Below, piece after piece: positions 13,488 to 33,251 of a stretch of DNA of 64,000 nucleotides. This stretch comes from a virus. A model generated the notes under the pieces. That model did not search any database. It saw only the letters and a list, made by a program, of their open reading frames with translations, and was not told where the DNA came from. Position 1 is the stretch's first letter, and every line of letters starts with the position of its first letter. Position numbers and translations under genes: made by a program. Location: IMG/VR virus record IMGVR_UViG_3300042569_002054; one strand, written 5' to 3'.

Positions 13488-14492
13488 ATGAGTTTAGTAA
13501 CAATAAATAGTTTGGGAGGAATACCTCCTTATGTTATTTCAGTTTGTGACATATTTCAATACTCTTGTCAAACTGTGACAACAATATATGATTATATTCC
13601 ACCATCTGTTAGTTTTAATATTCCGAGTCCATATTCATCGGCTCCAAAAGTTTTAATTAAAATAGTCGATTCTACAGGATGTATTTTCACACAAGAATAT
13701 ATGTGTGTAACACCTACTCCAACCCCAAGTATTACTCCAAGTGTCACCCCGACAATTTCTTTAACTCCTTCAAATACTCCAACACCAAGTATTACACCAT
13801 CATTTACACCTACACCGAGTATCACACCAAGTATTACACCTACACAAACAGTTACACCATCACATACCCCAACACAAACAATTACTCCAACAGTTACAAG
13901 AACTCCAACACCTACAGTTACACCTGACACTCCTATTTATGCTTATTTGTTCATTGAACCATACTCAGGTTCTGCTAGTGTTGGTTCTTACATGAATTCA
14001 CTTGGTTCTAATTTTTATGGATTTACAAATACTACTAAACCAAGTAGTTCGGCTAGTACATTTGATTTAGACATGAACAAATATGTTAACTTCTCAGGAT
14101 GGACAACAGGATTATTTCCAAATATTATAAAACAATTAGTACCATCGGCAAGTAGTGGACTTGATTCATACGGTAACCCATATCTTAAATATAATTTCCC
14201 AACAACAAAAGTACCTGAAAATACGGTTGGATGTAAAGCTTGGTACACTTGGATAATACCAATTAGCAGAACCAATAATCAATACCAAGTTGAGATTGAT
14301 TTGGGAATAGTTAATCCAAATGTCTTTACAAGTGTAAAGACGGAACCGACAATTTACGCTAATACATTTACTTATACAGGTAGTACTATTGCAAATACAA
14401 CATACAGGGTTTACACAACATACCCATCAAATACATTTGAATTGGATAATACTTATGACCTTTATTTTAGAGGAAGTAAGGTTGATATATAA
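13488..14492 (+). CDS. Modular protein: about 73 aa Cys domain + Thr/Pro linker + C-terminal domain shared with 24705-25913
   Basis: N-terminus resembles 36615-36836 and 44288-44509; about 70 aa TP linker; IYAYLFIEP parallels YAYVFAEP in the paralogue. Confidence 0.7.
13709..13926 (+). repeat. Thr/Pro mucin-like linker repeat
   Basis: [30 protein letters not shown]...TPTVTP. Confidence 0.9.
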
Positions 14493-14501
14493 TTATAGTA
14501 A

Positions 14502-16499
14502 ATGAGTTTCCCATATAAAAATCCAATATCGTCTATCCAACTAAATGGAACACAAAGTGTACCAAGAAACAATACGTATGGTACTACTTTCAGTGTTAAT
14601 AATACGGGTGGTTATATGGAGGTTTTCAGTTTATCTGACCTTTATTATACAATACCATCGGGAACAACGGGAAGTATTGAATATTCGGGTAATACTATTC
14701 CTATTGAGTTTACAAAAGGAACGGGAACAGCTTGGTCACCTGATGTAATTACTTTGGCTTCAGATAATATTTCATCAGGTAGAAGACGACTTGGTATGTT
14801 GGCTTATGTTTATGAGGTTGACCAAGTTTACCAATATCATATTAATGATTACGAGACGTTATTTAATGCTGCGACTGCTAGTACGGGATGCGCTCAAGTA
14901 TCTGATTTTGGAACAACGATAAATAATAAAACTGCTGCGGGTCAGTCGTTTATTAATTCTTGGACTGCTAACACTATTGAAGATGTTAGTGGTGCAACAT
15001 ATAGTACTGCGGCATGGAGAAAGTTTTCGACAGGAACTGGAGGAGGTTCAGGATTTACGTCAGTTAGAATAAATAATGTTAGTCAATTTACGTCATCACC
15101 ATATAGTTATATTAATTTTAGTGGTGTTAATGTTGATATATCATCAGTTGGAAACAATACGATTGTATTATCGGCAAGTACTAGCGGAGGTGGTGGAGGA
15201 AGTGGTTCGTCAGGTAGTAGTGGTAGTTCAGGAACATCGGGAACTAATGGTAGTTCAGGTTCTAGCGGGATTAGTGGTTCTTCAGGTACTAGTGGTAGTT
15301 CAGGTTCTGCAGGAACATCGGGGAGTTCGGGTTCTACAGGTTCGTCAGGAACAAGTGGTAGTAGTGGAACTTCAGGTAGTTCTGGTACATCTGGTTCAAG
15401 TGGTAGTAGTGGTTCTTTAGGAACATCAGGAAGTAGTGGTACCTCAGGTAATGGTGGGTCATCGGGAACAAGTGGTTTAGATGGGATAAGTGGAACGTCA
15501 GGTTCTTCAGGGTCAAGTGGAAGTACTGGCTCTTCAGGAACTAGCGGAACATCAGGTTTAAGTGGTTCTTCAGGAACTTCAGGTAGTTCTGGTACATCAG
15601 GTTCATCGGGTAGTTCCGGTTCTGCCGGAACATCAGGTACAGGATTTACCACAATCACAAGTCCGGGTAGTAATAGAGTATTAACATCTGATGGGACATC
15701 TAATGCTGCGGTTGCTCAGGCTAGAATGACTTTTGATGGTACTACATTATCAGTTACAGGTAATACAAGTGTTAATGGTAATATAAGTACTACAGGTGTA
15801 ACATCTTTTGGTAACGGAACATTTACAAAGGCGGGGTCAGCTACTGGTGATGTTCTTCTTGATAATAATAGTACAGATACTCCGGGTGTTTTGTTTTATT
15901 ATGCTAATAATTCAAACTTTGGTATTGATAGTTTTAATGGGTCATTTGATGTTCTAAGTGGACAGTTAGTTCGTATCACAAATAATTTAAATGAAGCAGG
16001 AGGTGCGGTAAAAATGGCTATAGATACCACAGGTAATGTGGTATTTACAGGATTTATAAAGGCTAATGCGTGGAGAGCCGGTCAGGTAATTAACGATATT
16101 ATTTTGAGTAATACTGAGGTAACTGTTAGTACTACAACTATAGCTACCAGTAATTCGGATACTGATTTTGTTACTTATAGTTATACACCATTAAGTTCTA
16201 CAAGTTATTTAGTAATACATTATCATTTAGCATCTTTTGATTTTACTTCTGGTACAGGTAATGATTCATACATATCTAGAATAAAGGTTGATGGTGGTGA
16301 AATAACCTATTCAGTACAAAGCACGGTTAATGGATTTCGTACAGGTGTTTTATTTCCATTAACGGGTAGATACACTAACTCTAATACTACCGCAAAATCG
16401 ATAGTAGTTGCATGTCGTAGAAGTTTTGCGGATGATAATATCACAATAGTAAATTCATCTACTTCAATGTGGTTAAGAATAACAGAAGTTGCAAGATAA
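14502..16499 (+). CDS. Fibre-like protein with 48 Gly-X-Y (Ser/Thr) triplets; paralogue of 25944-33251
   Basis: N-terminal domain shares MxxPYxNPIS and SSGRRRLGM with 25944; G-S/T-S repeat; beta-rich C-terminus. Confidence 0.75.
   Translation: MSFPYKNPISSIQLNGTQSVPRNNTYGTTFSVNNTGGYMEVFSLSDLYYTIPSGTTGSIEYSGNTIPIEFTKGTGTAWSPDVITLASDNISSGRRRLGMLAYVYEVDQVYQYHINDYETLFNAATASTGCAQVSDFGTTINNKTAAGQSFINSWTANTIEDVSGATYSTAAWRKFSTGTGGGSGFTSVRINNVSQFTSSPYSYINFSGVNVDISSVGNNTIVLSASTSGGGGGSGSSGSSGSSGTSGTNGSSGSSGISGSSGTSGSSGSAGTSGSSGSTGSSGTSGSSGTSGSSGTSGSSGSSGSLGTSGSSGTSGNGGSSGTSGLDGISGTSGSSGSSGSTGSSGTSGTSGLSGSSGTSGSSGTSGSSGSSGSAGTSGTGFTTITSPGSNRVLTSDGTSNAAVAQARMTFDGTTLSVTGNTSVNGNISTTGVTSFGNGTFTKAGSATGDVLLDNNSTDTPGVLFYYANNSNFGIDSFNGSFDVLSGQLVRITNNLNEAGGAVKMAIDTTGNVVFTGFIKANAWRAGQVINDIILSNTEVTVSTTTIATSNSDTDFVTYSYTPLSSTSYLVIHYHLASFDFTSGTGNDSYISRIKVDGGEITYSVQSTVNGFRTGVLFPLTGRYTNSNTTAKSIVVACRRSFADDNITIVNSSTSMWLRITEVAR
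15204..15635 (+). repeat. Gly-X-Y Ser/Thr triplet repeat (48 units)
   Basis: 432 nt in a 9-nt register, GSS/GTS dominated. Confidence 0.9.
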
Positions 16500-18346
16500 T
16501 GCCAATCCCACCGAATAAAATAAAATACTCAACGTCCTTTCATCCTAATACGATTAAAGTTAAGGATTGGGTTTTGGGTATTAATGAAGGTGCGGAATAC
16601 GGGCCAACAAGTGTTACAGGATTTTGGAATTCTATTATACCACCATCAGGTGGTTATACCATGTATGGAAACAAGGCAGTTGCTGGACCATCCATAGTGG
16701 TTGCTCAAAACGACTCAGAACTTATTGGTTTTACACAAGGATTTGCGGGACAAACATTTAATACTGCTAACGAAGCGTTAGGATGGTACACAGGACAAAC
16801 AGGTCTTATTTGTGTTAACCTTGATTACCCTGATATTATAACTGACGGATTAACATTATTACTTGATGCTGGTTATGTTTCATCATACCCAAGAAGTGGT
16901 TCACGATGGGATGATTTAAGTTTTAGTGGTAACAACGGAACACTAATTAATACTCCAACATTCAATTCAAGTAACAACGGATACCTCACATTTAACGGAA
17001 GTAATCAATATGTTAATGTTGCAGGTACTCCTGTTGGAATAACGGCATATACCAAAAACATTTGGTTTTATCTAAACTCAACGGCTGATAATAATTTATT
17101 AAGTAGTGATACTGGTGGACACTTTATGTTCTTTGCAGGTTCAAATAAATTATATTGTGGACATTCTGATTGGGGTAATTATACGGTTTTCCCATCGGTC
17201 ACTAACTTTAGTAATGGGGTGTGGTATAATGCGTGTGTAACTTTTGATACCATAAATGGATTTGTATTGTATGTTAATGGTGTTCAGGATAGTACATACA
17301 CCACTCAAAAGACACCTATAGGGGGTAATGGTTCAACAAGGATAGGAGCGTTTGGTGATGGAGGTAATCTATTAAATGGTAGGGTTTCAGTTGCTATGAC
17401 TTACAATAGAGTATTAAGTTCTACTGAAGTATTAAAAAATTACAATTCATTTTCGTCAAGATTTATTTCACCATCACCTACTCCGACAACAACAATAACC
17501 CCTACACCTACAATGACAGTTACCCCGACGATAACTCCAACAAATACTCAAACACCGACAAATACAATTACTCCAACACCTTCCATAACTCCGACTAGAA
17601 CTGTAACACCTACCCAAACACAGACACCGACAAATACGATTACTCCAACACCAACAAGTGTGGGTGGGGTAATTAGTGGTAATTTATTTATGAAGTTAGA
17701 TGCTACTAATTATGTTAGTGGTACTTGGACTGATGAAACGGGAAATGGAAATAATGCAACTATTAATGGTGCCACTTGGTTGTCTACTGACGGAGGTATT
17801 TTTGATTTAAATGGGACTAGTAATACAATAAGTATACCTCATACTGCTAATCTTAGTTTAAATACTACAACCCAAAGAACAATACAAGTTTGGGTTAAAT
17901 TTGACGTTTTACCTAGTTCAGGTCAACAAGTTCCGGTCTTTGGAAAACTATCCAGTTCATTTGGATTTGATGGGTATTGGGGTGGGTTATTCTCGAATGC
18001 TGGCGTTGTGAGGGTAGTTACAAATGGAACGGGGGTTCAAAAAATATCCGACTCTACGTTAACCGTTTCAATTAATACTTGGTATTTATTTACATTTGTT
18101 TCACGAATTACCTCAACTGCTAATACCACCAAAGTGTATATTAATAATACCGAATATATAACAACCGCTCATGGTACTGATACATATAGTGAAACTAACC
18201 CTCTTTATTTGGGTTACATTGGTACTGGTATATCATCACTTTATTTAAATGGTAAAATAGGTGCCTGTTATTTTTATACCACAGGATTAACCGCCAGTGA
18301 TGTAACAACAAACTATAATAATACTAAATCAAAATATGGATTATAA
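16499..18346 (+). CDS. Protein with two LamG/ConA-like domains separated by a Thr/Pro linker
   Basis: LLLDAGYVSSYPRSGSRWDDLS, WYNACVTFD...LYVNG and a second copy WYLFTFV...VYINN. Start moved to the ATG overlapping the upstream TAA (TAATG at 16497-16501). Confidence 0.75.
   Translation: MPIPPNKIKYSTSFHPNTIKVKDWVLGINEGAEYGPTSVTGFWNSIIPPSGGYTMYGNKAVAGPSIVVAQNDSELIGFTQGFAGQTFNTANEALGWYTGQTGLICVNLDYPDIITDGLTLLLDAGYVSSYPRSGSRWDDLSFSGNNGTLINTPTFNSSNNGYLTFNGSNQYVNVAGTPVGITAYTKNIWFYLNSTADNNLLSSDTGGHFMFFAGSNKLYCGHSDWGNYTVFPSVTNFSNGVWYNACVTFDTINGFVLYVNGVQDSTYTTQKTPIGGNGSTRIGAFGDGGNLLNGRVSVAMTYNRVLSSTEVLKNYNSFSSRFISPSPTPTTTITPTPTMTVTPTITPTNTQTPTNTITPTPSITPTRTVTPTQTQTPTNTITPTPTSVGGVISGNLFMKLDATNYVSGTWTDETGNGNNATINGATWLSTDGGIFDLNGTSNTISIPHTANLSLNTTTQRTIQVWVKFDVLPSSGQQVPVFGKLSSSFGFDGYWGGLFSNAGVVRVVTNGTGVQKISDSTLTVSINTWYLFTFVSRITSTANTTKVYINNTEYITTAHGTDTYSETNPLYLGYIGTGISSLYLNGKIGACYFYTTGLTASDVTTNYNNTKSKYGL
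17470..17655 (+). repeat. Thr/Pro mucin-like linker
   Basis: [35 protein letters not shown]... Confidence 0.9.
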
Positions 18347-18351: not shown

Positions 18352-19215
18352 ATGGCAACATCACGACCTTTTGCATATAATACAGGCTCAACAATTTCAG
18401 GGACAGAACAAGTTGGAAGTATTGCTATTGGATACCCAACAAGTGGTTTTACATCCACAGGTTTAAGATGGTGGAATGGGCCTGATGAAGATTTGGGATA
18501 TGTTATTGCTCACACCGTACCGTCAGGAACACAACCAAATCCTGTTGGAGTTCCTGCTTATATCGGTTTTTGGAGAACACCAAGTAAGACAGATAATAAC
18601 TTTATTAGTTTATCTCAGTATGTATCAAGTTTTACCGGAACACCACAAACATTTGCAAGTGCTTCAGCGGCTAAGACATGGTTAAACTCGGCGGGATATT
18701 GGACATCTTGGGATTTAAGTTATACTGCAGGAGTATTTAAAACAACTTATAGTGGGTACTTTAATGATAATGTTAATTTCTTTGCAACCGCAACTCCCGC
18801 ATCAGTAGGTGGAAATCCTGCGACTTCAGTACAAACCACCGAGATAACAGAACCCCCAACCAGTGACGGTGAGAATTTCAGTTGTCAATGGTTAGGTTAT
18901 TTCAAACCAACTACTACAGAAACTTACACATTCTTTACTTCATCTGATGATGCTTCCTATGTTTGGGTTGGTAGTAATAGTATTTCAGGATTTACAACAA
19001 CAAACTCAACAGTTAATAACGGTGGATTACATGGGACACAAGAACGTTCAGGTACAATTGCCTTAACTGCTGGTACATATTATCCGTTACGAGTACAATT
19101 TGGAGAACTAAGTGGTGGTGACGTGATGACTTTTAGTTATTCAACTCCGACTATAACAAAAACAACCAACGTAACAGGTTTAATTTTTTATAATTTGGTA
19201 ACAAGCGGATTTTAA
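18352..19215 (+). CDS. PA14/GLEYA-like carbohydrate-binding domain protein
   Basis: NFSCQWLGYFKPTTTETYTFFTSSDDASYVWVG ... YYPLRVQFGELSGGD is the PA14 pattern with its DD motif. Confidence 0.75.
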   Translation: MATSRPFAYNTGSTISGTEQVGSIAIGYPTSGFTSTGLRWWNGPDEDLGYVIAHTVPSGTQPNPVGVPAYIGFWRTPSKTDNNFISLSQYVSSFTGTPQTFASASAAKTWLNSAGYWTSWDLSYTAGVFKTTYSGYFNDNVNFFATATPASVGGNPATSVQTTEITEPPTSDGENFSCQWLGYFKPTTTETYTFFTSSDDASYVWVGSNSISGFTTTNSTVNNGGLHGTQERSGTIALTAGTYYPLRVQFGELSGGDVMTFSYSTPTITKTTNVTGLIFYNLVTSGF

Positions 19216-19285: not shown

Positions 19286-20530
19286 ATGAAAATTTTTATA
19301 CAAGTTGCCTCTTACAGAGACCCCCAACTAATCCCAACTATACAGTCAGCATTGGAAAATGCTAAACGACCTGAAAACTTAGTTTTTGGTATTGCTCGTC
19401 AGTTTCATCCTGATGATAATTTTGATAATTTAGATGAATATAGGAATGATGAAAGATTTAGAATAATCGATATTCCATACACCGAATCCAAAGGAGCTTG
19501 TTGGGCAAGAAATCAAATACAACAAGTATATGGTAAGGAAACTTACACTCTTCAAATTGACTCACACATGAGGTTTGCTCAAAATTGGGATGATGAGATG
19601 ATTAAGATGGTTAAACAACTTCAAAAGAAAGGATATAAGAAACCTTTATTAACAGGTTATGTTTCATCCTTTGACCCTGACAATGACCCCAACCTACGTG
19701 TTAACGAACCATGGAGAATGGCGTTTGATAGATTTATTCCTGAAGGTGCGGTTTTCTTTTTACCTGAAACAATTCCTGGTTGGCAAAATTTAACTGAACC
19801 TGTTACCGCAAGATTTTACTCGGCTCACTTCTGTTTTACTCTTGGAAAATTTGCTAAAGAAGTTCAACACGACCCTGAGTTTTATTTTCATGGTGAAGAG
19901 ATTTCAATCGCTGCAAGAGCATACACTCATGGATATGATTTATTCCACCCACATAAAGTTTTAATTTGGCATGAATATACTCGTAAGGGTAGAACTAAAC
20001 AATGGGATGACGATAAACAATGGGTTGATAAGAATAATTTTGCTCATAAGAAAAATCGTTCTCTATTCGGTATGGATGGTGAGGAAGATATGAATCACGG
20101 GAAGTATGGGTTTGGTAAAGTTAGAACTTTAAGAGATTATGAAAAATATTCAGGTCTTTTATTTTCAAAGAGAGCCGTTCAACAATATACGTTAGATAAA
20201 GGTTATCCACCAAATCCAAATAACTTCAATTCAGAAGAAGAATGGTTAAAGTCATTTACATCGGTATTCAAACATTGTATTGATATTGGGTTTACTCAAG
20301 TACCTGAAAAGGATTATGACTTTTGGGTTGTTGCGTTCCATAATGAATTAGATGAAACCATTTACAGACAAGATGCTGATAAAGGTGAGGTTGATAGAAT
20401 GTTAAGAGACCCTGATGGTTATTGTAAAGTTTGGAGAGAGTTCTTAACTGATTCAAAACCTAAATATTGGGTTGTTTGGCCTCACTCGGAATCTAAAGGA
20501 TGGTGTGATAGAATAACAGGAAATTTATAA
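19286..20530 (+). CDS. GT60-like (PF11397 GlcNAc-type) UDP-GlcNAc:polypeptide alpha-GlcNAc transferase
   Basis: IFIQVASYRDP, GACWARNQIQ, LQIDSHMRF..WD and FHGEEISIAARAYTHGYDLFHP match Gnt1/Gnt2-type motifs. Confidence 0.8.
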   Translation: MKIFIQVASYRDPQLIPTIQSALENAKRPENLVFGIARQFHPDDNFDNLDEYRNDERFRIIDIPYTESKGACWARNQIQQVYGKETYTLQIDSHMRFAQNWDDEMIKMVKQLQKKGYKKPLLTGYVSSFDPDNDPNLRVNEPWRMAFDRFIPEGAVFFLPETIPGWQNLTEPVTARFYSAHFCFTLGKFAKEVQHDPEFYFHGEEISIAARAYTHGYDLFHPHKVLIWHEYTRKGRTKQWDDDKQWVDKNNFAHKKNRSLFGMDGEEDMNHGKYGFGKVRTLRDYEKYSGLLFSKRAVQQYTLDKGYPPNPNNFNSEEEWLKSFTSVFKHCIDIGFTQVPEKDYDFWVVAFHNELDETIYRQDADKGEVDRMLRDPDGYCKVWREFLTDSKPKYWVVWPHSESKGWCDRITGNL

Positions 20531-20533
20531 GAT

Positions 20534-21244
20534 ATGAAATTTACATTTGCTACTTTTTGTTTTGGTGAAAGATATTATAACCAAGTTAATAGATTTATTG
20601 GTGATATCGTAGAATCGGATTATAAAACAAATTTGGTTGTTATTACCGATGACCCAAGTAAGATTAATAATCAAGAATTTGTTCACACTTTCAACATTAA
20701 TGATTTTAATCCAAATTATTTGGAGTATGCTAAAAACTACTATGATTTTGATTTTTCAGTTAAGAGATATTCGTTAAGAGCTGCTTTAAGTATTGGTTTT
20801 ACTAAAATGATTTTAGTTGATTGTGATATGAGAGTTAACCCATCTTTCTTTAATGAAGAAAAGATTTTAGGAGCGTTTGATGAGAATTGTTTATCAGGGC
20901 CAGTAACATATAATTTTAACGAACAAGTTCATACCAATAGTGAATTAGGTAGACGATTACTTGAGTATGAAAAGTATTTCAATCATGAGGTTAATAAAGA
21001 TAAGTTGGAGGTTATGCCTGAAGATTGTATCCAATACTTGAGTATTGATGAAGATAAGTTTAATAGTTTTTTAGATACTTGGGACAAGTGTATCGAATAT
21101 AAAAAAGAAAAAGGTTTGAGAAACATACCCGCAGGTAACATAGACGAGATGTGTTTCTCGGCGTTATCTAATGGAATTGAAATAAAAAATAACGCTTATA
21201 AAGCATCAAATATAATATACGCAGAACATGACAAATGGTACTAA
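20534..21244 (+). CDS. Putative GT-A fold glycosyltransferase
   Basis: DxD motif (MILVDCD) after a K..L..A helix; located inside the GT cluster. Confidence 0.55.
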   Translation: MKFTFATFCFGERYYNQVNRFIGDIVESDYKTNLVVITDDPSKINNQEFVHTFNINDFNPNYLEYAKNYYDFDFSVKRYSLRAALSIGFTKMILVDCDMRVNPSFFNEEKILGAFDENCLSGPVTYNFNEQVHTNSELGRRLLEYEKYFNHEVNKDKLEVMPEDCIQYLSIDEDKFNSFLDTWDKCIEYKKEKGLRNIPAGNIDEMCFSALSNGIEIKNNAYKASNIIYAEHDKWY

Positions 21245-22082
21245 AATAATTTCAGCAATTTATGAATTAAAATATGTTGAAGGGATTAATAGTGAAAGAT
21301 ATAAAAATTTTCCATTATTGGTTGCAACGATTAAAAACATAATTTATCCTGAATATCGTTACGTAATTTATACTGACCAAAATTCATATGATAAGTTTAA
21401 TTTAAAGTATGAATTTAATTTCCCAAATGTTGAATTTAAATTTAAAGAATTAAATACATCTGAAACTTGTGAATTAATTGACAGAATTAGAACTCAAGAA
21501 TTATCAGGTGGAATTAACTATGATAGAATTTATTGTGTAAACAATTATTTGGAAGTTGTTTTAAATAAACTTCAATTCTTAATTGATGAGTCACATGATT
21601 GTGATAATATCTTTTGGATTGATGCTGGTTTGATTGGAACATCTTGTCATGACGGGTGGAGAGATTATATGGCTCCGTTAATTAACTCAAAAAACTTTTT
21701 GGATAAGGTGGTTGATAAGATAAATCAACATGGATTTATCCATTTAAAAGGTAATTCAATTGTCATGAATTATGAAACGGTTGCTAAGTTTAACGACCTA
21801 TTTGGTGTTGAATTAAAGGTTGTTCCTGGATGTCTATTTGGTGGAACATCAGAAAAAGTTAGACATATTTTAGACGGATATTTAGACATTTTTAATCAAT
21901 ACTTAACCACACATAACCAACTTATTAGTGAACAAGAGGTTCTTACGGCTATTACAGGTAAACATTCGGATGAATGTCACGCTTTTGAATTTGGTGATTG
22001 GTTAGACTTACAAAAAGCGTTTTTAGACATTTTAGACATTTATGATGAGACAAAATATGTAAGGGAGAAGTGTTATGTTTAG
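21228..22082 (+). CDS. HtrL/YibB-like putative glycosyltransferase
   Basis: IFWIDAGL and VPGCLFGG parallel LFWIDAGL and ARGGFFGG in 22635-24305. Confidence 0.6.
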   Translation: MTNGTKIISAIYELKYVEGINSERYKNFPLLVATIKNIIYPEYRYVIYTDQNSYDKFNLKYEFNFPNVEFKFKELNTSETCELIDRIRTQELSGGINYDRIYCVNNYLEVVLNKLQFLIDESHDCDNIFWIDAGLIGTSCHDGWRDYMAPLINSKNFLDKVVDKINQHGFIHLKGNSIVMNYETVAKFNDLFGVELKVVPGCLFGGTSEKVRHILDGYLDIFNQYLTTHNQLISEQEVLTAITGKHSDECHAFEFGDWLDLQKAFLDILDIYDETKYVREKCYV

Positions 22083-24704: not shown

Positions 24705-25913
24705 ATGGAATGGTTTATTAAGAAAAATTCAACGTTACCAGTTTTCCAAGTTGAGATATCAAAAGACGGAAGAAGTGATTTTGGTTTAGATGAAAATATT
24801 TCGGGTAATACAATTTTAATTTCGGTATATGATGAAGTTAATAAGAAATATATTGTAGCGTCTAAAGAATGTTATATTACAACAAGTGCGTCTACTGTTA
24901 ATCCTTTAGATATTACTTATTATGTAAACTATCAATTTACAAGTAGAGAAACTAAAAATGAGGGTAAGTTTTTAGTTCAGTTTTTAAAACAATCATCTCA
25001 GGGTATTGTTATTATACCATTACCTCAAAAAATTTATGTAAGTGTTCTTAGTAGTTTTAGTTTAAACTCTTACTCTTATCCGACTAATAATCCTTACATT
25101 ATTGATAGACCATGTTGTAACGCACCAGCTCTACCTGCAACACCTACACCAACACCATCTATTACTCCAAGTGTTACTCCAACAATGTCTTTAACACCAT
25201 CACTAACTCCAACTCTCACACCTACAACAACTACAACACCTACATTTACTCCTACACCATCTATTACAACACCACAATATTATGCTTATGTATTCGCAGA
25301 ACCACAAGATTCTTCGGCAAGTGGTTCGTTGTATGGATTAGGAAGTTATATGTATTACTTATCGGATGGTATAACACCTGATACTAATGTTAATTGGTAC
25401 GGATGGGGTAACTCGGGAGCTCTTCCATTACCAACAAATCCAAACTACAGTTATATGATGAACAAATACTCATCATACTCAGGATTTACAGGTGGAACAG
25501 GAAACTTTGTTAAACCTACAGACTTAAAAGGTGCGTTAAATCAATTCCCAAATACTATCAATGATAGTTTTGGATGTTTAATTAACCAATACACTTTTGA
25601 AACAATAGAAGTTAATAATAGTGATATTAACACTAGTTTACAGTACATGTATACGATTTGGATACCACTTGATGGTGTCGGAGGAACTTTAAATAATATG
25701 AGTGTAAATGTTGGTTATCAATCACAACCTTGTGACTTTGATATTTTAGCAACTCCTGACCCTAAAATTTCGGTTGGGGATATTACAATAACTCCAGGTG
25801 GAGCGATACCTGCGGGAACTTATAGAGTATTATACTTATCAAACGATGGATTGTTACCTCCAAAACTTCCTGATAATAACAATTATTATTTCAAAGGGGT
25901 GTATAAAACCTAA
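24705..25913 (+). CDS. BppU-N-like domain + Thr/Pro linker + domain shared with 13488-14492
   Basis: Start moved to ATG 24705 (MEWFIKKNSTLP); TP linker at about 25133-25275. Confidence 0.7.
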   Translation: MEWFIKKNSTLPVFQVEISKDGRSDFGLDENISGNTILISVYDEVNKKYIVASKECYITTSASTVNPLDITYYVNYQFTSRETKNEGKFLVQFLKQSSQGIVIIPLPQKIYVSVLSSFSLNSYSYPTNNPYIIDRPCCNAPALPATPTPTPSITPSVTPTMSLTPSLTPTLTPTTTTTPTFTPTPSITTPQYYAYVFAEPQDSSASGSLYGLGSYMYYLSDGITPDTNVNWYGWGNSGALPLPTNPNYSYMMNKYSSYSGFTGGTGNFVKPTDLKGALNQFPNTINDSFGCLINQYTFETIEVNNSDINTSLQYMYTIWIPLDGVGGTLNNMSVNVGYQSQPCDFDILATPDPKISVGDITITPGGAIPAGTYRVLYLSNDGLLPPKLPDNNNYYFKGVYKT

Positions 25914-25943: not shown

Positions 25944-28900
25944 ATGGCAATACCGTATCAAAATCCAATAAGTGCGTCCCAAATTACAGGACCTTTCAGT
26001 GTAGCGAGAACAAGTCCATACGGAACCAATTTTAATGTTTTAAATGTTGGTGGATGGCAAGAGGCGGCATACCTTACTAATTTAGGTTTAACATTTAGTG
26101 GGCAAGGACAACAACAATTAAGTGTTAATAATATACCTATTAATATTAACATTGGTAACGGTACATTTTCTCCAACATATTTAACTTTAAATTCTGACAA
26201 TTTCTCTTCGGGTAGAAGAAGATTGGGTATGATTGTTTGGGTTAATGAAACTGAAACGGCATATCAATATCAAATAGACAATTACAATGATTTATGGGAT
26301 GCTGCAGTAAGTGCTAATTCTGTAACTCAATTATCTTACGAAACTATTATAAAGAATAATACACCTGAAGGTCAGGCATTTATTAATGCTTGGACAGGCT
26401 CAACTATTGAAGGTGTTAGTGGTGTTACAAGAGAAAATGCGAGATGGAGAGTTTTTGCTCAAGGTACTGAATTAACGGGTGGTACTTATTTTTCAGGTAC
26501 AAGTACATTAGAATTATATAATAGTGATGGAACTATTATTTCTGTAACAGGTATTACGGCATCTGGTTCTAATGGTAGTTCTGGAACATCAGGTTCTGCG
26601 GGTACAAGTGGTTCTTCAGGAAGTGCTGGTTCTTCAGGTAACTCTGGTTCTTCAGGTTCAGCAGGTACAAGTGGAACTTCAGGTAGTTCTGGTTCATCAG
26701 GTAGTTCTGGTTCTGCGGGTACATCAGGAACAAGTGGAACGTCTGGTTCATCAGGGGATAGCGGTTCTTCGGGAAGTGCTGGAACTAGCGGTAGTTCAGG
26801 TAGTGCTGGAACATCAGGTATTAATGGTGTTGATGGTGCAAGTGGAACATCAGGTACAAGTGGTTCATCAGGACTATCAGGTACTGGAGGTTCTTCGGGT
26901 ACATCAGGAACATCTGGCTCCTCAGGTTCATCAGGTTCTTCAGGAAGTGTGGGAACAAGTGGAACGTCAGGTTCTTCGGGAAGTTCTGGTACAAGCGGAA
27001 CTTCAGGAACTTCAGGTTCAAGTGGTTCATCGGGAAGTTCAGGTTCAAGTGGTTCATCGGGTACATCAGGTAGTACTGGTACTAGTGGTAGTAGTGGAAC
27101 AAGCGGAACGTCGGGTTCATCAGGTTCTGCGGGAAGTAGTGGTTTATCAGGTAGTGTTGGAACATCTGGCTCAAGTGGTAGTTCAGGTAGTTCTGGTTCA
27201 TCAGGTACATCTGGCTCAAGTGGTAGCTCTGGTTCAACAGGTTCGTCAGGTAGTAGTGGTATAACTGGGTCTTCAGGTACGAGTGGTAGTTCTGGCACAT
27301 CAGGTTCATCTGGTAGTTCAGGTTCTTCAGGTTCATCTGGTAGTTCAGGTTCTTCAGGTAGTACTGGTTCATCAGGAACTAGCGGAACATCAGGAACATC
27401 AGGTACAAGTGGTAGTTCAGGTTCTACAGGAACATCGGGTTCTACAGGAACATCGGGTTCATCAGGTAGTAGTGGCTCAAGTGGAAGTTCAGGATTGACA
27501 GGTTCATCAGGAACATCGGGTTCATCAGGGACATCGGGTTCATCAGGTAGTTCTGGTTCAAGTGGTAGTAGCGGAAGTACAGGGTCTTCGGGCACAAGTG
27601 GTAGTTCTGGTACATCAGGTTCATCAGGAAGTTCAGGTTCATCAGGTTCTAGCGGTAGTGTTGGAACTTCGGGAACAAGTGGTTCAAGTGGAAGTTCAGG
27701 TTCTTCAGGAAGTGTAGGAACATCAGGTACAAGTGGAAGTTCAGGTTCGTCTGGCTCAAGTGGAAATACAGGTTCAAGTGGAACGAGTGGTTCATCAGGT
27801 ACATCTGGCTCAAGTGGTAGTTCAGGTTCGTCTGGCTCAAGTGGTTCAAGTGGAAGTTCAGGTTCATCTGGAAGTGTAGGAACATCAGGTACAAGTGGTA
27901 GTTCAGGTTCTTCAGGTAGTTCAGGTGTTAATGGTTCTTCAGGGACTAGTGGTAGTTCGGGAACATCTGGTTCTTCAGGAAGTTCGGGTTCATCAGGTTC
28001 TAGTGGTAGTTCAGGAACATCTGGCTCAAGCGGGTCTTCTGGTTCAAGTGGAAGTACTGGTTCTTCAGGAAGTGCAGGTACATCGGGTAGTGTAGGAACT
28101 AGCGGTAGTTCTGGTTCATCTGGTTCTTCAGGTAGTACTGGCTCAAGTGGTACTTCAGGTTCTTCGGGAAGTTCTGGTACTAGTGGTTCATCAGGTAGTG
28201 TAGGTACTAGTGGTTCATCAGGTAGTTCTGGTTCAAGTGGTAGTAGCGGAAGTACAGGGTCTTCTGGTACAAGTGGGAGCTCAGGAACATCTGGTACAAG
28301 CGGTAGTTCTGGGTCATCTGGTTCAGTTGGTACAAGCGGTTCATCAGGTAGTGTTGGAACATCTGGTTCATCAGGTTCTGTTGGTACTTCAGGAACATCG
28401 GGTTCATCAGGTAGTACTGGTTCAAGTGGAAGTTCAGGAAGTAGTGGTAGTGTAGGAACAAGTGGTTCTTCAGGGACATCTGGCTCAACAGGTACTTCAG
28501 GAACATCAGGTTCAAGTGGGTCTTCAGGTAGTTCGGGTTCATCAGGAAGTTCAGGTACAAGCGGAACATCAGGTTCAGTAGGAACAAGTGGTTCATCGGG
28601 AAGTTCAGGGTCAACAGGAACTTCAGGTTCAAGTGGGTCTTCAGGTAGTTCAGGAAGTAGCGGAACATCTGGTTCTAGTGGAAGTGTTGGAACTTCTGGT
28701 ACATCAGGAACAAGTGGTTCATCGGGAAGTTCTGGTTCTGCCGGTACAAGTGGAAGTGTAGGAACAAGTGGTACTTCAGGTTCATCTGGCTCAAGTGGAA
28801 GTTCAGGTTCAACAGGTAGTTCAGGTACTAGCGGTTCATCTGGAAGTTCTGGTTCTGCAGGTACAAGTGGAAGTTCTGGTTCTTCAGGTAGTACGGGTTC

Positions 28901-31900
28901 AAGAGGAACTAGCGGAACATCAGGAAGTTCTGGTTCTGTTGGAACTAGTGGAACGTCTGGTTCAGTAGGAACTAGCGGAACATCTGGAACAAGTGGTTCA
29001 TCAGGTTCTAGCGGTAGCGCTGGAAGCTCAGGAACGTCAGGTTCTAGCGGTAGCACAGGTTCAAGTGGTTCTACTGGCACGTCAGGTTCTTCAGGAACAA
29101 GTGGTTCTGTAGGTACAAGCGGAACATCTGGTTCCTCAGGAAGTGTAGGTACTTCAGGTACTAGTGGAAGCTCAGGAAGTGTAGGAACATCTGGTTCAAG
29201 TGGTACTACTGGTACCTCAGGAACATCAGGTAGTTCAGGTTCTAGCGGAAGTTCAGGTTCAAGTGGAACTAGTGGTAGTTCAGGAAGTTCTGGTTCATCG
29301 GGTAGTAGCGGTAGTTCTGGTAGTGTAGGAACATCTGGTTCTTCAGGAAGTTCTGGTTCAAGTGGTTCATCCGGAAGTTCAGGTTCTACAGGTTCAAGAG
29401 GAACATCGGGTACTTCAGGAACTAGCGGTTCAAGTGGAAGTACAGGAACTAGTGGTACATCAGGTTCAACGGGGACTTCAGGAACAAGTGGTTCAACTGG
29501 AACATCAGGTACAAGTGGAAGTACAGGGTCTTCAGGAAGCTCTGGTACGTCGGGTAGTGTAGGTACTAGCGGTAGTTCAGGCTCTAGCGGAAGTACAGGA
29601 ACTAGTGGAACCTCTGGTTCAACAGGGACTAGCGGTTCATCAGGTAGTTCAGGTTCAAGTGGAAGTTCAGGTAGTAGTGGTAGCGTTGGAACTTCTGGTA
29701 CATCAGGTTCAAGTGGTTCTTCAGGAAGTGCAGGTTCTAGTGGAAGTACTGGAACCTCAGGAACATCAGGTAGTTCTGGTTCTTCAGGTAGTTCAGGTTC
29801 AAGTGGTAGTGTTGGAACATCAGGTTCATCGGGTAGTGTAGGTACTAGCGGTTCTTCTGGTTCAAGTGGAAGTTCAGGTTCTAGCGGAAGTACAGGGTCA
29901 AGCGGAACTAGTGGTAATTCAGGTTCGTCTGGTTCAAGTGGAAGTTCAGGTTCATCTGGAAGTGTAGGAACAAGTGGAACCTCAGGTTCAGTAGGTACAA
30001 GTGGTACATCAGGAAGTTCAGGCTCAAGTGGTAGTACGGGTTCATCTGGTACTAGCGGCTCTTCGGGAAGTACTGGGTCATCTGGAAGTTCAGGTTCAAC
30101 AGGAACTAGCGGTTCTTCAGGAACATCAGGTAGTAGCGGTTCTAGTGGTAGTGCTGGAACAAGTGGTAGTTCTGGTTCTGTTGGTACATCTGGGTCAAGC
30201 GGAAGTAGTGGTTCATCGGGAAGTGTAGGCACATCCGGTTCTTCAGGCTCTAGCGGTAGTGCTGGAAGTTCAGGAAGTGTTGGTACATCAGGGACTAGTG
30301 GTAGTTCAGGTTCTTCTGGTTCAAGTGGTAGTGTTGGTACATCAGGTACTAGCGGTTCATCAGGTACTAGCGGTTCATCAGGGTCAAGCGGAACTAGCGG
30401 TAGTTCAGGTTCTAGCGGTTCTTCAGGAAGTTCTGGGTCATCTGGCTCTTCAGGTAGTACAGGTTCAAGAGGAACTAGCGGTACTTCAGGAACTAGTGGT
30501 AGTGTAGGTACATCCGGTTCTTCAGGTAGTTCGGGAACATCAGGAAGTAGTGGAAGTTCAGGTTCTGCAGGTACAAGTGGAAGTGTAGGAACATCTGGAA
30601 CTTCTGGTTCAAGTGGGTCATCAGGTTCAAGTGGTAGTGTTGGAACTAGCGGTTCATCAGGAACAAGTGGTTCGTCAGGTTCTAGCGGTAGTGCTGGAAG
30701 CTCAGGAAGTACTGGTTCATCAGGTTCTGCGGGAAGTGCTGGTACATCAGGGGTTAATGGTTCTTCAGGAACATCAGGTTCTGCTGGCTCAAGTGGAAGT
30801 TCAGGTTCTTCAGGTAGTTCGGGTTCAGTAGGTACAAGCGGAACTTCAGGTTCATCAGGTAGTGCTGGCTCGTCAGGGTCTAGCGGTTCTGTTGGTACTT
30901 CAGGTAGTAGTGGAACATCTGGAAGCTCTGGCTCAAGTGGTAGTGCGGGTTCATCAGGGAGTAGTGGAACTTCAGGTTCATCAGGAAGTTCAGGTTCAAG
31001 TGGTAGTACGGGGTCTTCAGGAAGTTCTGGTTCAACAGGTTCTAGAGGAACTAGCGGAACATCAGGTTCATCTGGAAGTGTTGGTACTTCAGGAACGTCA
31101 GGTTCAGTAGGTTCGTCTGGTTCTTCAGGAACTTCAGGTTCAGTAGGTACTAGTGGAACATCTGGAAGCTCTGGCTCAAGTGGTAGTGCGGGGTCATCAG
31201 GGAGTACTGGTACAAGTGGAAGTTCGGGTTCAACTGGTACTTCAGGTTCAAGTGGAAGTAGTGGCTCATCAGGTTCTTCAGGGAGTACTGGTACAAGTGG
31301 AACATCAGGTTCTAGTGGAAGTAGTGGTAGTTCAGGGTCATCTGGTTCTGCAGGTACATCAGGAAGTAGTGGAAGTTCAGGGTCTAGCGGTAGTTCTGGT
31401 TCATCAGGTACATCGGGAACTAGCGGAAGTTCAGGAACTTCAGGTAGTAGTGGGTCATCAGGTTCAACGGGTAGTTCAGGAAGTAGTGGAACAAGTGGTT
31501 CATCTGGTACTTCAGGTTCATCTGGCTCAAGTGGTAGTACGGGTTCTTCAGGAAGCTCAGGCTCAAGCGGAAGTTCTGGTTCAACAGGTTCTAGAGGAAC
31601 AAGTGGAACTTCTGGTTCGTCAGGAACTAGCGGAACGTCAGGAACATCAGGCTCAAGCGGAAGTGTTGGAACATCTGGTTCGTCAGGAAGTACAGGAACA
31701 TCAGGTAGTGCTGGTTCTTCTGGCTCAAGTGGTAGTTCAGGTTCAAGTGGAAGTACTGGAACATCAGGTTCATCAGGTTCTAGCGGTAGTACTGGAAGCT
31801 CAGGAACGTCAGGTTCTGTAGGTACAAGCGGGACATCAGGAACTTCGGGAAGTACTGGTTCTAGTGGTAGTTCAGGAAGTTCTGGTTCATCGGGTAGTAC

Positions 31901-33251
31901 AGGTACTTCAGGAAGCTCAGGTTCAAGTGGAACTAGTGGTTCTTCAGGGTCTAGCGGTTCATCGGGTTCTAGTGGAAGTTCAGGGTCATCTGGTAGTACA
32001 GGTTCAAGAGGAACTAGCGGTACTTCAGGAACTAGTGGTAGCTCAGGAACATCTGGTTCTTCGGGTACATCAGGGTCAGGTGGTTCTTCAGGAAGTAGTG
32101 GTAGTTCTGGAACTTCAGGTTCTTCAGGAACAAGCGGAAGCTCAGGAACATCAGGTTCAAGTGGAAGCACGGGTAGTTCAGGCTCGTCAGGTAATACTGG
32201 AAGTTCTGGTACATCGGGTTCTTCGGGTACAAGTGGTTCTTCTGGGTCATCAGGCTCAAGTGGGAATACTGGTTCTTCGGGAACTTCTGGTTCATCAGGA
32301 ACTAGCGGTTCTTCAGGAAGTTCAGGTTCAAGTGGTAATACAGGTTCTTCGGGTACTAGCGGTTCATCAGGTTCTTCTGGCTCATCAGGTTCAAGTGGAA
32401 GCTCAGGTTCTTCAGGTATTACAGGAAGTAGTGGAACTAGCGGTTCTTCAGGAAGTGCTGGTTCATCAGGTAGCTCAGGTTCAGGTTCATCAGGAACAAG
32501 CGGATTAGATGGTATTAGTGGAACATCTGGTTCATCAGGTACATCTGGCTCAAGTGGTAGCTCTGGTTCAACAGGTTCGTCAGGTAGTAGTGGTATAACT
32601 GGGTCTTCAGGTACGAGTGGTAGTTCGGGAACATCAGGTTCATCGGGAACAAGTGGTTCTAGTGGAAGTTCGGGTTCTTCAGGTAGTTCGGGGTCTAGCG
32701 GAAGTACGGGTTCAAGAGGAACAAGTGGTTCATCAGGCACATCAGGTAGTCAAGGTAATAAAGGTGGTCTTCAATACCAATACGGTGGTGGGACAGGAGG
32801 TGCACCTGCTTCAGGTCAATTTACTTATCAAGGAGCGGGTGTAGCGGTGTATGATTTGAAATTTGACGTAGTAACTGCTGACTCAGCAGATTTAAGTGAT
32901 TATTTTTTAAACTTAGTTGGAACACAAGGGATTGTATATTTAATTTTTAATTTAAATGGTTCAAATAAAATTGATATTTACTACTTCAACAATGTAAGTG
33001 TAAGTGGTAGTGATTATTTGTTTACAGGTGCATTATATACAAATGGTGGTGATACAACACTTACAGTAAATGACGTATGTGCAGTTACTATTATTGTTAA
33101 CGGTACATCTGGAACATCAGGTTCATCAGGTACTTCAGGTTCATCGGGTATTACTGGTTCATCAGGTACCTCAGGAGCTGCAGGAGCTGCGGGTGGAACA
33201 TTCACATTAGGACTTGTTTATACAACAGCAAACAATTTTAACTTTATATAA
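25944..33251 (+). CDS. Giant (2435 aa) Pro-free collagen-like Gly-X-Y Ser/Thr-rich fibre protein
   Basis: About 200 aa N-terminal domain paralogous to 14502; about 2066 aa of Gly-X-Y; short globular C-terminal region with a second short GSS tract. Confidence 0.85.
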   Translation: MAIPYQNPISASQITGPFSVARTSPYGTNFNVLNVGGWQEAAYLTNLGLTFSGQGQQQLSVNNIPININIGNGTFSPTYLTLNSDNFSSGRRRLGMIVWVNETETAYQYQIDNYNDLWDAAVSANSVTQLSYETIIKNNTPEGQAFINAWTGSTIEGVSGVTRENARWRVFAQGTELTGGTYFSGTSTLELYNSDGTIISVTGITASGSNGSSGTSGSAGTSGSSGSAGSSGNSGSSGSAGTSGTSGSSGSSGSSGSAGTSGTSGTSGSSGDSGSSGSAGTSGSSGSAGTSGINGVDGASGTSGTSGSSGLSGTGGSSGTSGTSGSSGSSGSSGSVGTSGTSGSSGSSGTSGTSGTSGSSGSSGSSGSSGSSGTSGSTGTSGSSGTSGTSGSSGSAGSSGLSGSVGTSGSSGSSGSSGSSGTSGSSGSSGSTGSSGSSGITGSSGTSGSSGTSGSSGSSGSSGSSGSSGSSGSTGSSGTSGTSGTSGTSGSSGSTGTSGSTGTSGSSGSSGSSGSSGLTGSSGTSGSSGTSGSSGSSGSSGSSGSTGSSGTSGSSGTSGSSGSSGSSGSSGSVGTSGTSGSSGSSGSSGSVGTSGTSGSSGSSGSSGNTGSSGTSGSSGTSGSSGSSGSSGSSGSSGSSGSSGSVGTSGTSGSSGSSGSSGVNGSSGTSGSSGTSGSSGSSGSSGSSGSSGTSGSSGSSGSSGSTGSSGSAGTSGSVGTSGSSGSSGSSGSTGSSGTSGSSGSSGTSGSSGSVGTSGSSGSSGSSGSSGSTGSSGTSGSSGTSGTSGSSGSSGSVGTSGSSGSVGTSGSSGSVGTSGTSGSSGSTGSSGSSGSSGSVGTSGSSGTSGSTGTSGTSGSSGSSGSSGSSGSSGTSGTSGSVGTSGSSGSSGSTGTSGSSGSSGSSGSSGTSGSSGSVGTSGTSGTSGSSGSSGSAGTSGSVGTSGTSGSSGSSGSSGSTGSSGTSGSSGSSGSAGTSGSSGSSGSTGSRGTSGTSGSSGSVGTSGTSGSVGTSGTSGTSGSSGSSGSAGSSGTSGSSGSTGSSGSTGTSGSSGTSGSVGTSGTSGSSGSVGTSGTSGSSGSVGTSGSSGTTGTSGTSGSSGSSGSSGSSGTSGSSGSSGSSGSSGSSGSVGTSGSSGSSGSSGSSGSSGSTGSRGTSGTSGTSGSSGSTGTSGTSGSTGTSGTSGSTGTSGTSGSTGSSGSSGTSGSVGTSGSSGSSGSTGTSGTSGSTGTSGSSGSSGSSGSSGSSGSVGTSGTSGSSGSSGSAGSSGSTGTSGTSGSSGSSGSSGSSGSVGTSGSSGSVGTSGSSGSSGSSGSSGSTGSSGTSGNSGSSGSSGSSGSSGSVGTSGTSGSVGTSGTSGSSGSSGSTGSSGTSGSSGSTGSSGSSGSTGTSGSSGTSGSSGSSGSAGTSGSSGSVGTSGSSGSSGSSGSVGTSGSSGSSGSAGSSGSVGTSGTSGSSGSSGSSGSVGTSGTSGSSGTSGSSGSSGTSGSSGSSGSSGSSGSSGSSGSTGSRGTSGTSGTSGSVGTSGSSGSSGTSGSSGSSGSAGTSGSVGTSGTSGSSGSSGSSGSVGTSGSSGTSGSSGSSGSAGSSGSTGSSGSAGSAGTSGVNGSSGTSGSAGSSGSSGSSGSSGSVGTSGTSGSSGSAGSSGSSGSVGTSGSSGTSGSSGSSGSAGSSGSSGTSGSSGSSGSSGSTGSSGSSGSTGSRGTSGTSGSSGSVGTSGTSGSVGSSGSSGTSGSVGTSGTSGSSGSSGSAGSSGSTGTSGSSGSTGTSGSSGSSGSSGSSGSTGTSGTSGSSGSSGSSGSSGSAGTSGSSGSSGSSGSSGSSGTSGTSGSSGTSGSSGSSGSTGSSGSSGTSGSSGTSGSSGSSGSTGSSGSSGSSGSSGSTGSRGTSGTSGSSGTSGTSGTSGSSGSVGTSGSSGSTGTSGSAGSSGSSGSSGSSGSTGTSGSSGSSGSTGSSGTSGSVGTSGTSGTSGSTGSSGSSGSSGSSGSTGTSGSSGSSGTSGSSGSSGSSGSSGSSGSSGSTGSRGTSGTSGTSGSSGTSGSSGTSGSGGSSGSSGSSGTSGSSGTSGSSGTSGSSGSTGSSGSSGNTGSSGTSGSSGTSGSSGSSGSSGNTGSSGTSGSSGTSGSSGSSGSSGNTGSSGTSGSSGSSGSSGSSGSSGSSGITGSSGTSGSSGSAGSSGSSGSGSSGTSGLDGISGTSGSSGTSGSSGSSGSTGSSGSSGITGSSGTSGSSGTSGSSGTSGSSGSSGSSGSSGSSGSTGSRGTSGSSGTSGSQGNKGGLQYQYGGGTGGAPASGQFTYQGAGVAVYDLKFDVVTADSADLSDYFLNLVGTQGIVYLIFNLNGSNKIDIYYFNNVSVSGSDYLFTGALYTNGGDTTLTVNDVCAVTIIVNGTSGTSGSSGTSGSSGITGSSGTSGAAGAAGGTFTLGLVYTTANNFNFI
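27192..27292 (+). repeat. 101-bp exact direct repeat, copy 1 (copy 2 at 32526-32626)
   Basis: Base-by-base identity checked by eye. Confidence 0.85.
32526..32626 (+). repeat. 101-bp exact direct repeat, copy 2
   Basis: Identical to 27192-27292. Confidence 0.85.

Follow-up and report, generated by a model that had tools for sequence, protein, structure and literature searches.

A GT60-led glycosyltransferase cassette among Thr/Pro-linker and collagen-like fibre genes of a jumbo phage: a candidate system for virion O-glycosylation

The window analysed here, a 64,000-nucleotide stretch of the virus record IMGVR_UViG_3300042569_002054, carries at positions 13488-33251 a row of fibre-like genes interrupted by a cassette of five glycosyltransferase genes (19286-24305), headed by a member of family GT60 and considered here as a candidate phage-encoded system for O-glycosylation of virion proteins. 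The source is an IMG/VR virus contig of 101.6 kb with a CheckV completeness estimate of 34%, and is therefore a fragment of a jumbo phage with a genome of roughly 300 kb. G+C content of the window is ~30%, rising to 44-49% across the genes with Gly-Ser/Thr repeats. All long open reading frames (ORFs) of 13488-33251 lie on the + strand, separated by gaps of at most 70 nt or joined by small overlaps, and their coordinates match those of an earlier sequence-only reading of this DNA. Scans for sigma-70-type promoters, terminators and Bacteroidota-type promoters gave results at chance level, uninformative on transcription units.

Five soluble glycosyltransferases headed by a GT60 enzyme

The cassette consists of the following genes:

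19286-20530, + strand: GT60-type soluble polypeptide N-acetylhexosamine (HexNAc)-transferase-like enzyme, the 5' bookend of the cassette (PF11397, motif and fold)
20534-21244, + strand: GT-A-like protein of the variable part of the cassette, 236 residues, DCD motif (weak chondroitin synthase match)
21228-22082, + strand: HtrL/YibB-like GT-A protein of the variable part, 284 residues (similarity to 22635-24305)
22075-22638, + strand: short GT2-like protein of the variable part, 187 residues, DDDD motif (PF00535)
22635-24305, + strand: bifunctional transferase, 556 residues, the conserved 3' bookend (PF09612, second GT-A domain, model)

At the level of family and fold, these are soluble glycosyltransferases with six GT-A-type domains, identified by hidden Markov models (HMMs), pairwise similarity and structural models, in agreement with the five contiguous transferase-like genes and about six catalytic domains seen in the sequence-only reading; its naming of the downstream genes as GT-A, HtrL-like and GT2 enzymes was upheld by the same means. 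No transmembrane segment was found by hydropathy in any of the five proteins.

The first gene encodes a true GT60 member by HMM, motif and fold, as the sequence-only reading had proposed; the refuting condition set in that reading, a lack of GT60 character in HMM or structure, was not borne out. Its product matches PF11397 ('GlcNAc', GT60) with 232.4 bits (cut-off 21, E 1.4e-68), the aligned part consisting of profile positions 2-43 and 92-349 out of 352, and phrog_24687 at E 5e-170. Residues D92-S93-H94 form a DxH motif that does not vary among 21 aligned phage homologues, the most distant of them 40% identical. GT27 and GT60 are marked by this replacement of DxD by DxH; the two are sister families which have polypeptide Ser/Thr O-glycosylation in common (PMC7185993), and the GT60 enzyme of Trypanosoma cruzi makes N-acetylglucosamine (GlcNAc)-alpha-O-Thr on mucins (PMC9472816). 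The AlphaFold model of the phage enzyme has a predicted local distance difference test score (pLDDT) of 91.4, and its best Foldseek matches are throughout polypeptide N-acetylgalactosamine transferases (ppGalNAc-Ts). On VIA re-alignment the top 29 rows are all ppGalNAc-Ts, with Z 19.4-22.7 and a root-mean-square deviation (rmsd) of ~3.5 A over ~270 residues, the alignments spanning model residues 1 to ~329; the next rows are generic or unrelated GT-A enzymes at Z <=18.2. Sequence identity to the ppGalNAc-Ts is only 11-13%, and a sequence search of the PDB with this protein gave no match. A type II membrane anchor was sought, and no transmembrane segment was present (maximum 19-residue hydropathy 0.76). 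The donor may be UDP-GlcNAc and the transfer retaining (alpha); Thr/Ser residues of polypeptides would be the acceptors, to judge from the gene neighbourhood. No literature report connecting GT60 with phages was found.

The model divides into a catalytic domain (residues 1 to ~323) and a beta-rich C-terminal domain (324-414; window 20255-20530). The latter lies outside the Pfam model and beyond the part covered by the fold searches; it is kept in bacterial homologues, is duplicated in one XacN1-like phage (L111:9995-11719), and occupies a position that parallels the lectin domain of ppGalNAc-transferases.

The three middle genes are less clearly placed. The 20534-21244 protein gives a weak match to K4 chondroitin synthase (E 0.002), with GT8, GT6 and nucleotide-diphospho-sugar transferases as atlas leads, and its homologue is present in only some relatives. 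The 21228-22082 protein shares 27% identity over 159 residues with the HtrL domain of 22635-24305 (E 3e-8), including an FWIDAGL motif, and its atlas lead is an HtrL_YibB cluster at 0.97. Neither matched anything in a Pfam scan, even with E relaxed up to 5; a PDB sequence search with 21228-22082 gave no match, and the other downstream cassette genes gave weak GT-A matches only. The match of 22075-22638 to the GT2 profile PF00535 is marginal (24.8 bits, cut-off 23.3), accompanied by a match to SpsA at E 0.007.

The two-domain enzyme 22635-24305 matches HtrL_YibB (PF09612) over residues 3-254 at 49.7 bits (cut-off 24.1, E 5e-13), and its model (pLDDT 88.4) comprises two GT-A domains. The HtrL domain (1-268) aligns to GT6 enzymes, namely the blood-group A/B synthases and BoGT6a, with Z 12.7-12.9 over 195 residues and rmsd 3.5 A; the second (279-556, EDD motif, inverting-type GT-A) aligns to B4GALNT1, POMGNT1, GnT-I and cellulose-synthase catalytic domains with Z 13.4-14.7. 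Every relative possessing the two-domain gene has both domains. Whole-protein tandem GT-A matches are Mimivirus R699, LH3, COLGALT1, LARGE1 and K4 chondroitin polymerase, which are tied, with rmsd 17-25 A, and reflect a common architecture, nothing more. The R699, LH3 and COLGALT1 matches were considered as a sign of a collagen acceptor, and this was rejected because of the tie with LARGE1 and chondroitin polymerase and because of the large rmsd.

Fibre and linker proteins around the cassette

The genes on either side of the cassette, together with one further candidate outside 13488-33251, are:

13488-14492, + strand: adaptor-like protein, 334 residues, with a Thr/Pro linker of ~80 residues (residues ~74-150), candidate acceptor (translation)
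14502-16499, + strand: short collagen-like fibre, 665 residues, 49 Gly-Ser/Thr-Ser triplets (PF01391, E 4e-18; PHROG tail-fibre families, best E 1.8e-26)
16469-18346, + strand: 625-residue protein with two LamG/concanavalin-like domains and a Thr/Pro linker of ~75 residues between them, candidate acceptor (PF13385, E 9e-26)
18352-19215, + strand: PA14/GLEYA lectin-like protein, 287 residues (PF10528, E 1e-18; PF07691, E 5e-15)
24335-24703, + strand: small conserved protein, 122 residues, directly 3' of the cassette (synteny)
24678-25913, + strand: adaptor-like protein with a Thr/Pro linker of ~60 residues, paralogue of 13488-14492, candidate acceptor (translation)
25944-33251, + strand: giant collagen-like fibre, 2435 residues (PF01391, E 1e-277, 896 bits)
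41809-44283, - strand: Cys-rich protein, 824 residues, 271 Thr/Pro-linker residues and a C-terminal beta-propeller, further candidate acceptor (translation, linker count)

Thr/Pro linkers begin at about 13707, 17468 and 25131, and Gly-X-Y runs at about 15204 and 26565; translations and triplet counts thus place both kinds of repeat where the sequence-only reading had put them. By a home-made criterion the linker comprises 83 residues in 13488-14492 and 59 in 24678-25913. The likely start of the latter is ATG 24705, and that of 16469-18346 is ATG 16499. Linkers occur in 4/84 ORFs of the 101.6-kb contig and Gly-X-Y runs in 2/84, all of them confined to 13.5-44.3 kb of the window. The C-terminal domains of 13488-14492 and 24705-25913 are homologous (E 4e-5), and the latter gene is a conserved downstream neighbour of the cassette. 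The 122-residue protein is always the next gene after the cassette in relatives, and its homologue forms the N-terminus of Thr/Pro-linker proteins of 247-1906 residues (L043, L053, L063, L075, L076, L080, L082); it may therefore be the attachment domain of a glycosylated fibre, as these fusions suggest.

The giant fibre contains 698 Gly-X-Y triplets, 658 of them uninterrupted, and 1287 Ser/Thr residues. X is Ser/Thr in 97% of the triplets and Y is Ser in 80%, and the repeats are proline-free and almost without charged residues, for which a flexible or mucin-like chain would be as possible as a triple helix; in the form of a triple helix the fibre would extend for roughly 0.5 micrometre. The giant fibre and the short fibre 14502-16499 have homologous N-termini. 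The short fibre ranges from 329 to 1370 residues across L005-L012 although their GT60 enzymes are 95-98% identical, and its repeat length is therefore highly plastic among these sequences. A 2084-residue ORF on the minus strand (26486-32740) is the shadow frame of the Gly-Ser/Thr repeats opposite the giant fibre gene and was rejected as a gene. Directly after the giant fibre, at window 33899-36605, lie three tandem paralogues of ~300 residues, each with a glycine-rich domain PF21722 (E 5e-7 to 3e-10), which may be fibre-tip or receptor-binding proteins.

The placement of the cassette inside a tail module, as first read from the sequence, was partly confirmed: tail-fibre matches for 14502-16499 and a match of 16469-18346 to phrog_8510 ('virion structural protein', E 1e-31) speak for it, while ORFs upstream of 11280 have no PHROGs or Pfam match and no similarity to the XacN1 baseplate region, so that a baseplate or tail identity is not confirmed for that part. 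SprB repeats are present at window 11280-13460.

The cassette and its neighbours in related phages and bacteria

Relatives of the GT60 gene were found in 407 viral contigs of IMG/VR and in >7000 metagenome protein clusters, and the jumbo-phage clade carrying it is therefore very abundant. Among the IMG/VR relatives its conservation far exceeds that of the neighbouring genes. Viral loci were compared in the best 80 of the 407 relatives (GT60 76-98% identical, contigs up to 322 kb). Nucleotide megablast of the cassette against a phage collection gave no match, and a protein search of that collection matched only four jumbo phages.

In all loci of sufficient length, one to eight middle genes stand between GT60 and the two-domain enzyme; they fall into 58 families in ~60 loci. 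These families include FkbM-type and other methyltransferases, GT25, fucosyltransferase-like GT10 and GT11, GT2, UDP-galactopyranose mutase, HAD hydrolase, nucleotidyltransferase and rhamnosyl-O-methyltransferase-like families, among others; genes 2-4 of the window cassette are one variant of this hypervariable middle. With its first and last enzymes, for initiation and finishing, kept constant and the tailoring genes between them variable, the cassette has the gene content of a glycan-diversifying island whose acceptor is constant.

A Thr/Pro-linker ORF lies within two ORFs of the cassette in 49/63 distinct phage architectures. Such ORFs are found directly upstream (position -1) in 27/58 cases, never inside the cassette (0/244), and at a frequency of about zero beyond five ORFs; some cassette neighbours carry linker tracts of 800-950 residues. 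Because the phage loci are of common ancestry, XacN1-like phages and bacterial genomes were examined as well. The former (GT60 35-49% identical) retain the pairing of GT60 with the two-domain enzyme. A scan of bacterial genomes returned 367 GT60 relatives, and the two genes are adjacent in chromosomes of Gemmatimonadota, Bacteroidota, Verrucomicrobiota and Pseudomonadota, at G+C 0.36-0.71. All Thr/Pro-linker ORFs of the bacterial loci lie at most four ORFs from GT60 (27/420; further away 0/279), and the comparison of two ORFs or fewer with four ORFs or more gives an odds ratio of 5.3 (p 1.7e-4). The association between GT60 and Thr/Pro-linker proteins is real, not universal. The glycan had been called eukaryote-style in the sequence-only reading, a description that is not supported, since GT60 enzymes belong to prokaryotes as well as protists (PMC7185993), and these 367 bacterial relatives were found.

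In the cultured bacterium Jiulongibacter sediminis (L142) the locus encodes a protein of 262 residues, Tat-like at its N-terminus and with a Thr/Pro tract of 140 residues, together with the GT60 gene, a second PF11397 paralogue (306 residues, E 3e-34), a carbamoyltransferase, as in XacN1, and a fusion of FkbM, HtrL and GT-A domains. Two PF11397 paralogues stand side by side or around a Thr/Pro-repeat gene in L142, L162, L153, L151 and L128. In Ralstonia sp. 25C (L184), a gene three positions away from the GT60 homologue encodes a VgrG spike of type VI secretion (Phage_GPD and gp5 C-terminal domain) that terminates in a long (Thr-Pro)n tail, and in Achromobacter (L183) the same position is held by an 823-residue Thr/Pro-linker protein with 126 linker residues. 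Next to GT60 in a Gemmatimonadaceae locus (L140:7230-7955) lies a protein with a PqqD-like peptide-binding domain (PF05402, E 1.5e-7) and a C-terminal Thr/Pro repeat (QTPMITPSVS units).

The closest 'bacterial' GT60 matches (L118-L125, L144; 62-74% identity, G+C 0.33-0.39) are short contigs binned into metagenome-assembled genomes of Saprospiraceae or Bacteroidia, and are probably phage rather than bacterial DNA. Together with the SprB repeats of the window, this binning hints at a Bacteroidota (Saprospiraceae-like) host.

Candidate acceptors, competing explanations and known systems

These genes are probably best explained by a late cytoplasmic, phage-encoded O-glycosylation cassette that acts on the Thr/Pro linkers of virion fibre proteins. 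Late in infection, the soluble GT60 enzyme, a retaining GT-A transferase of DxH type and sister of the ppGalNAc-Ts, would prime Thr/Ser residues of these linkers in the cytoplasm, the first sugar probably being a HexNAc from a host UDP-sugar. Its acceptors would be the fibre and adaptor proteins synthesised concurrently (13488-14492, 16469-18346, 24705-25913 and perhaps 41809-44283). The glycan would then be extended by the two-domain enzyme and the three strain-variable transferases before the proteins are assembled into the particle. The predicted outcome is mucin-like, stiffened, protease-shielded and antigenically variable stalks, with a glycan that would differ from one related phage to the next as a result of the hypervariable cassette middle. 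The linker association and the arrangement of the five genes in one tight same-strand row with fibre genes are consistent with this scheme, and an experimental hint comes from the jumbo phage XacN1, for which Schiff's reagent revealed at least two glycoprotein bands in purified virions, and whose authors suggested its own transferases ORF328 and ORF334 (PMC5852040, Fig. S4).

Several points weigh against this proposal. The acceptor assignment is drawn from gene neighbourhood, and the GT60 enzymes with known biochemistry are those of protists, not of prokaryotes or phages; both the ORF calling and the linker criterion are home-made. The 63 phage architectures share ancestry, so that 49/63 does not represent 49 independent events. 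In bacteria a Thr/Pro-linker ORF lies within two ORFs in only 14/61 loci; several XacN1-like loci have none within 10 kb, such an ORF being present in only some of them, and of the four Thr/Pro-linker proteins that the complete relative G001 encodes, three are 50-75 kb away from the cassette. Co-location could also arise simply from plasticity, which marks tail-fibre regions and glycan islands alike. Bacterial HtrL_YibB relatives are located in core loci of lipopolysaccharide (LPS) or lipooligosaccharide (LOS) (PMC4172580), and the XacN1 bands are unassigned to proteins or to ORF334.

In its fuller version the sequence-only reading had also taken the Gly-Ser/Thr fibres, 14502-16499 and above all 25944-33251, for acceptors, with potentially over 1000 sites per giant chain. 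These fibres bracket the cassette, the giant one offers 1287 Ser/Thr residues in 698 proline-free triplets, and its uncharged Gly-Ser/Thr-Ser chain makes an unusual collagen; the collagen-like region of Bacillus BclA carries Thr-linked sugars, and Riftia cuticle collagen is stabilised by galactosyl-Thr. The layout of the two-domain enzyme also resembles the collagen glycosyltransferases R699, LH3 and COLGALT1, but at rmsd 17-20 A and with Z tied with unrelated enzymes. Against this, the expected co-occurrence of GT60 with repeat genes, which held for Thr/Pro-linker proteins, failed for Gly-X-Y fibres: they stand near the cassette in the closest relatives, L005-L012, and in L066 alone, and have no counterpart at any bacterial GT60 locus examined. 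The complete 294-kb genome G001 has the same five transferase genes and no Gly-X-Y protein anywhere, L006, L007 and L012 have the fibres with a different cassette middle, and no cassette gene tracks them. Gly-X-Y fibres are thus limited to one sub-lineage and untracked by cassette genes, and adjacency is therefore the sole link to the repeats; known GT60 and GT27 acceptors are Pro/Thr-rich tracts, not Gly-X-Y repeats. That the fibres are major acceptors with hundreds to more than 1000 sites per chain, possibly besides linker glycosylation, is accordingly unlikely, and the claim as first made finds no backing in the relatives. A fuller form, in which the 658-triplet fibre would be O-glycosylated over its full length into a glycan-stabilised collagen or mucin-like bottlebrush, and the GT60/two-domain pair would be a general prokaryotic mucin-type system of jumbo phages and many bacterial phyla, seems to us rather doubtful.

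It is also conceivable that the targets lie outside the virion, among host proteins (for takeover) or non-structural phage proteins, with the fibre-gene neighbourhood incidental. The PHROGs category of the GT60 family is 'moron, auxiliary metabolic gene and host takeover', XacN1-like cassettes abut DNA polymerase and RNase H genes on one side, and Gnt1, a characterised GT60 enzyme, modifies the cytoplasmic regulator Skp1. We nevertheless consider this quite improbable given the strong enrichment of Thr/Pro-linker neighbours, the tight one-strand row with fibres and the Schiff-positive virions of XacN1; a hypervariable glycan would, moreover, suit an exposed surface better than an intracellular target. 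A non-protein glycoconjugate, be it host LPS, capsule or exopolysaccharide (for example as a superinfection block) or a free glycan, is suggested by the HtrL_YibB, GT25 and GT2 families typical of LPS/LOS loci and by the Jiulongibacter module, which adjoins UDP-glucose dehydrogenase and epimerase genes. The window cluster has no transmembrane segment, flippase, polymerase or initiating phosphoglycosyl-transferase, however, and the characterised members of the lead-enzyme family all act on polypeptides, in keeping with its ppGalNAc-T-like fold; with the enriched linker neighbours, this makes synthesis or remodelling of such a glycoconjugate very unlikely.

Glycosylation of hypermodified phage DNA bases, as by T4 glucosyltransferases, TET-associated glycosyltransferases (TAGTs) or arabinosyl-5-hydroxycytosine systems, is extremely improbable. 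Jumbo phages often modify their DNA (PMC13326640), and the C-terminal domain of 22635-24305 shows a sub-threshold similarity to TAGT PF20691 (E 0.031, 14.6 bits, cut-off 27.5) and weakly matches phrog_842, a beta-glucosyl-hydroxymethylcytosine alpha-glucosyltransferase (E 5e-5). Yet the lead enzyme has a ppGalNAc-T-like fold, and GT60/two-domain pairs stand beside Thr/Pro proteins in bacterial chromosomes. A thymidylate-synthase homologue occurs in two of three near-complete relatives and is absent from the 98%-complete G003, which retains GT60. No Tet/JBP gene was found in five relatives, which is weak evidence, as the search matched none of the control genomes either. In G002, a complete 322-kb relative, the thymidylate-synthase homologue (G002:C1:60011-61096) matches in two pieces ~150 nt apart within one 436-residue frame, which suggests that it carries an insertion.

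Glycosylation of the linkers, the reading preferred here, would have consequences beyond this locus. Modification of particles by phage enzymes has so far been treated as rare, represented by a few mycobacteriophages and the XacN1 hint, and GT60 enzymes are known only from protist mucin and Skp1 glycosylation. Here one heads a conserved jumbo-phage cassette with a middle that shows the variability of an O-antigen locus, and in bacterial chromosomes the GT60/two-domain pair is found beside Thr/Pro-repeat proteins. If true, a widespread prokaryotic mucin-type O-glycosylation system would be defined, the purpose of the common Thr/Pro linkers in phage fibres would be explained, and a glycan layer would be added to phage-host recognition, particle stability and antigenicity.

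Compared with known systems, the lead enzyme is structurally closest to the GT27 ppGalNAc-transferases of animals and Toxoplasma, which start glycans on Thr/Ser of Pro-rich tracts and share with it the DxH motif and an extra C-terminal domain after the catalytic domain. It differs from them in belonging to another CAZy family at 11-13% identity and in being cytoplasmic where GT27 enzymes are Golgi-resident, and its C-terminal domain is not established as a ricin-type lectin. With the protist GT60 enzymes (TcOGNT, Dictyostelium Gnt2/pp-alphaGlcNAcT2 and Gnt1) it has in common PF11397, DxH and a GT-A fold nearest GT27. The candidate phage acceptors are Thr/Pro-rich, as are protist mucins, the enzyme is soluble like the cytoplasmic Gnt1, and UDP-galactopyranose mutase in the cassettes of relatives recalls the galactofuranose extension of T. 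cruzi O-GlcNAc glycans. Unlike them it is phage-encoded and carries the extra beta-rich domain 324-414; it also has no type II membrane anchor, in contrast to TcOGNT and Gnt2 of the Golgi, and the HtrL plus GT-A partner is absent from protist pathways.

In the bacterial glycosylation islands for serine-rich-repeat adhesins and flagellins, priming of Ser/Thr-rich tracts falls to soluble enzymes of the cytoplasm, the surface fibre that carries these tracts is encoded by an adjacent gene, and the glycan is diversified by transferases that vary between strains. The cassette would follow the same logic, by analogy, with unrelated priming enzymes (GT-B GtfA/B and Maf/FlmG in those islands).

Phage-encoded glycosyltransferases act on their own virion proteins in the mycobacteriophages Che8, Corndog and Myrna, according to the account of Freeman et al. 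2023 as summarised in PMC12363180. The likeness lies in phage enzymes modifying the phage's own particle. The mycobacteriophage systems, compared by description only, differ in enzyme families, in their Actinobacteria hosts and in their targets, which are capsid and tail-tube subunits; no GT60 enzyme has been reported from them. One mycobacteriophage of cluster F1 has a gene annotated as HtrL/YibB, of unknown role in that phage (PMC10453261).

A further counterpart is XacN1, likewise a jumbo phage. Identity to the proteins of the window is 47% for ORF334, its GT60 homologue, and 43%, along the entire length, for ORF330, its two-domain enzyme; the cassette ORF334-ORF330 adjoins genes of the baseplate wedge and a protein of 3313 residues in which short Thr/Pro tracts occur. 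XacN1 differs by a carbamoyltransferase in its cassette, a host of another phylum and the lack of collagen-like Gly-Ser/Thr fibres, and its authors annotated the enzyme only as a 'glycosyltransferase family protein', not tied to a substrate (PMC5852040). Phage-encoded virion glycosylation is thus already known from mycobacteriophages and has been suggested for XacN1, and what would be new here is its GT60-led variant.

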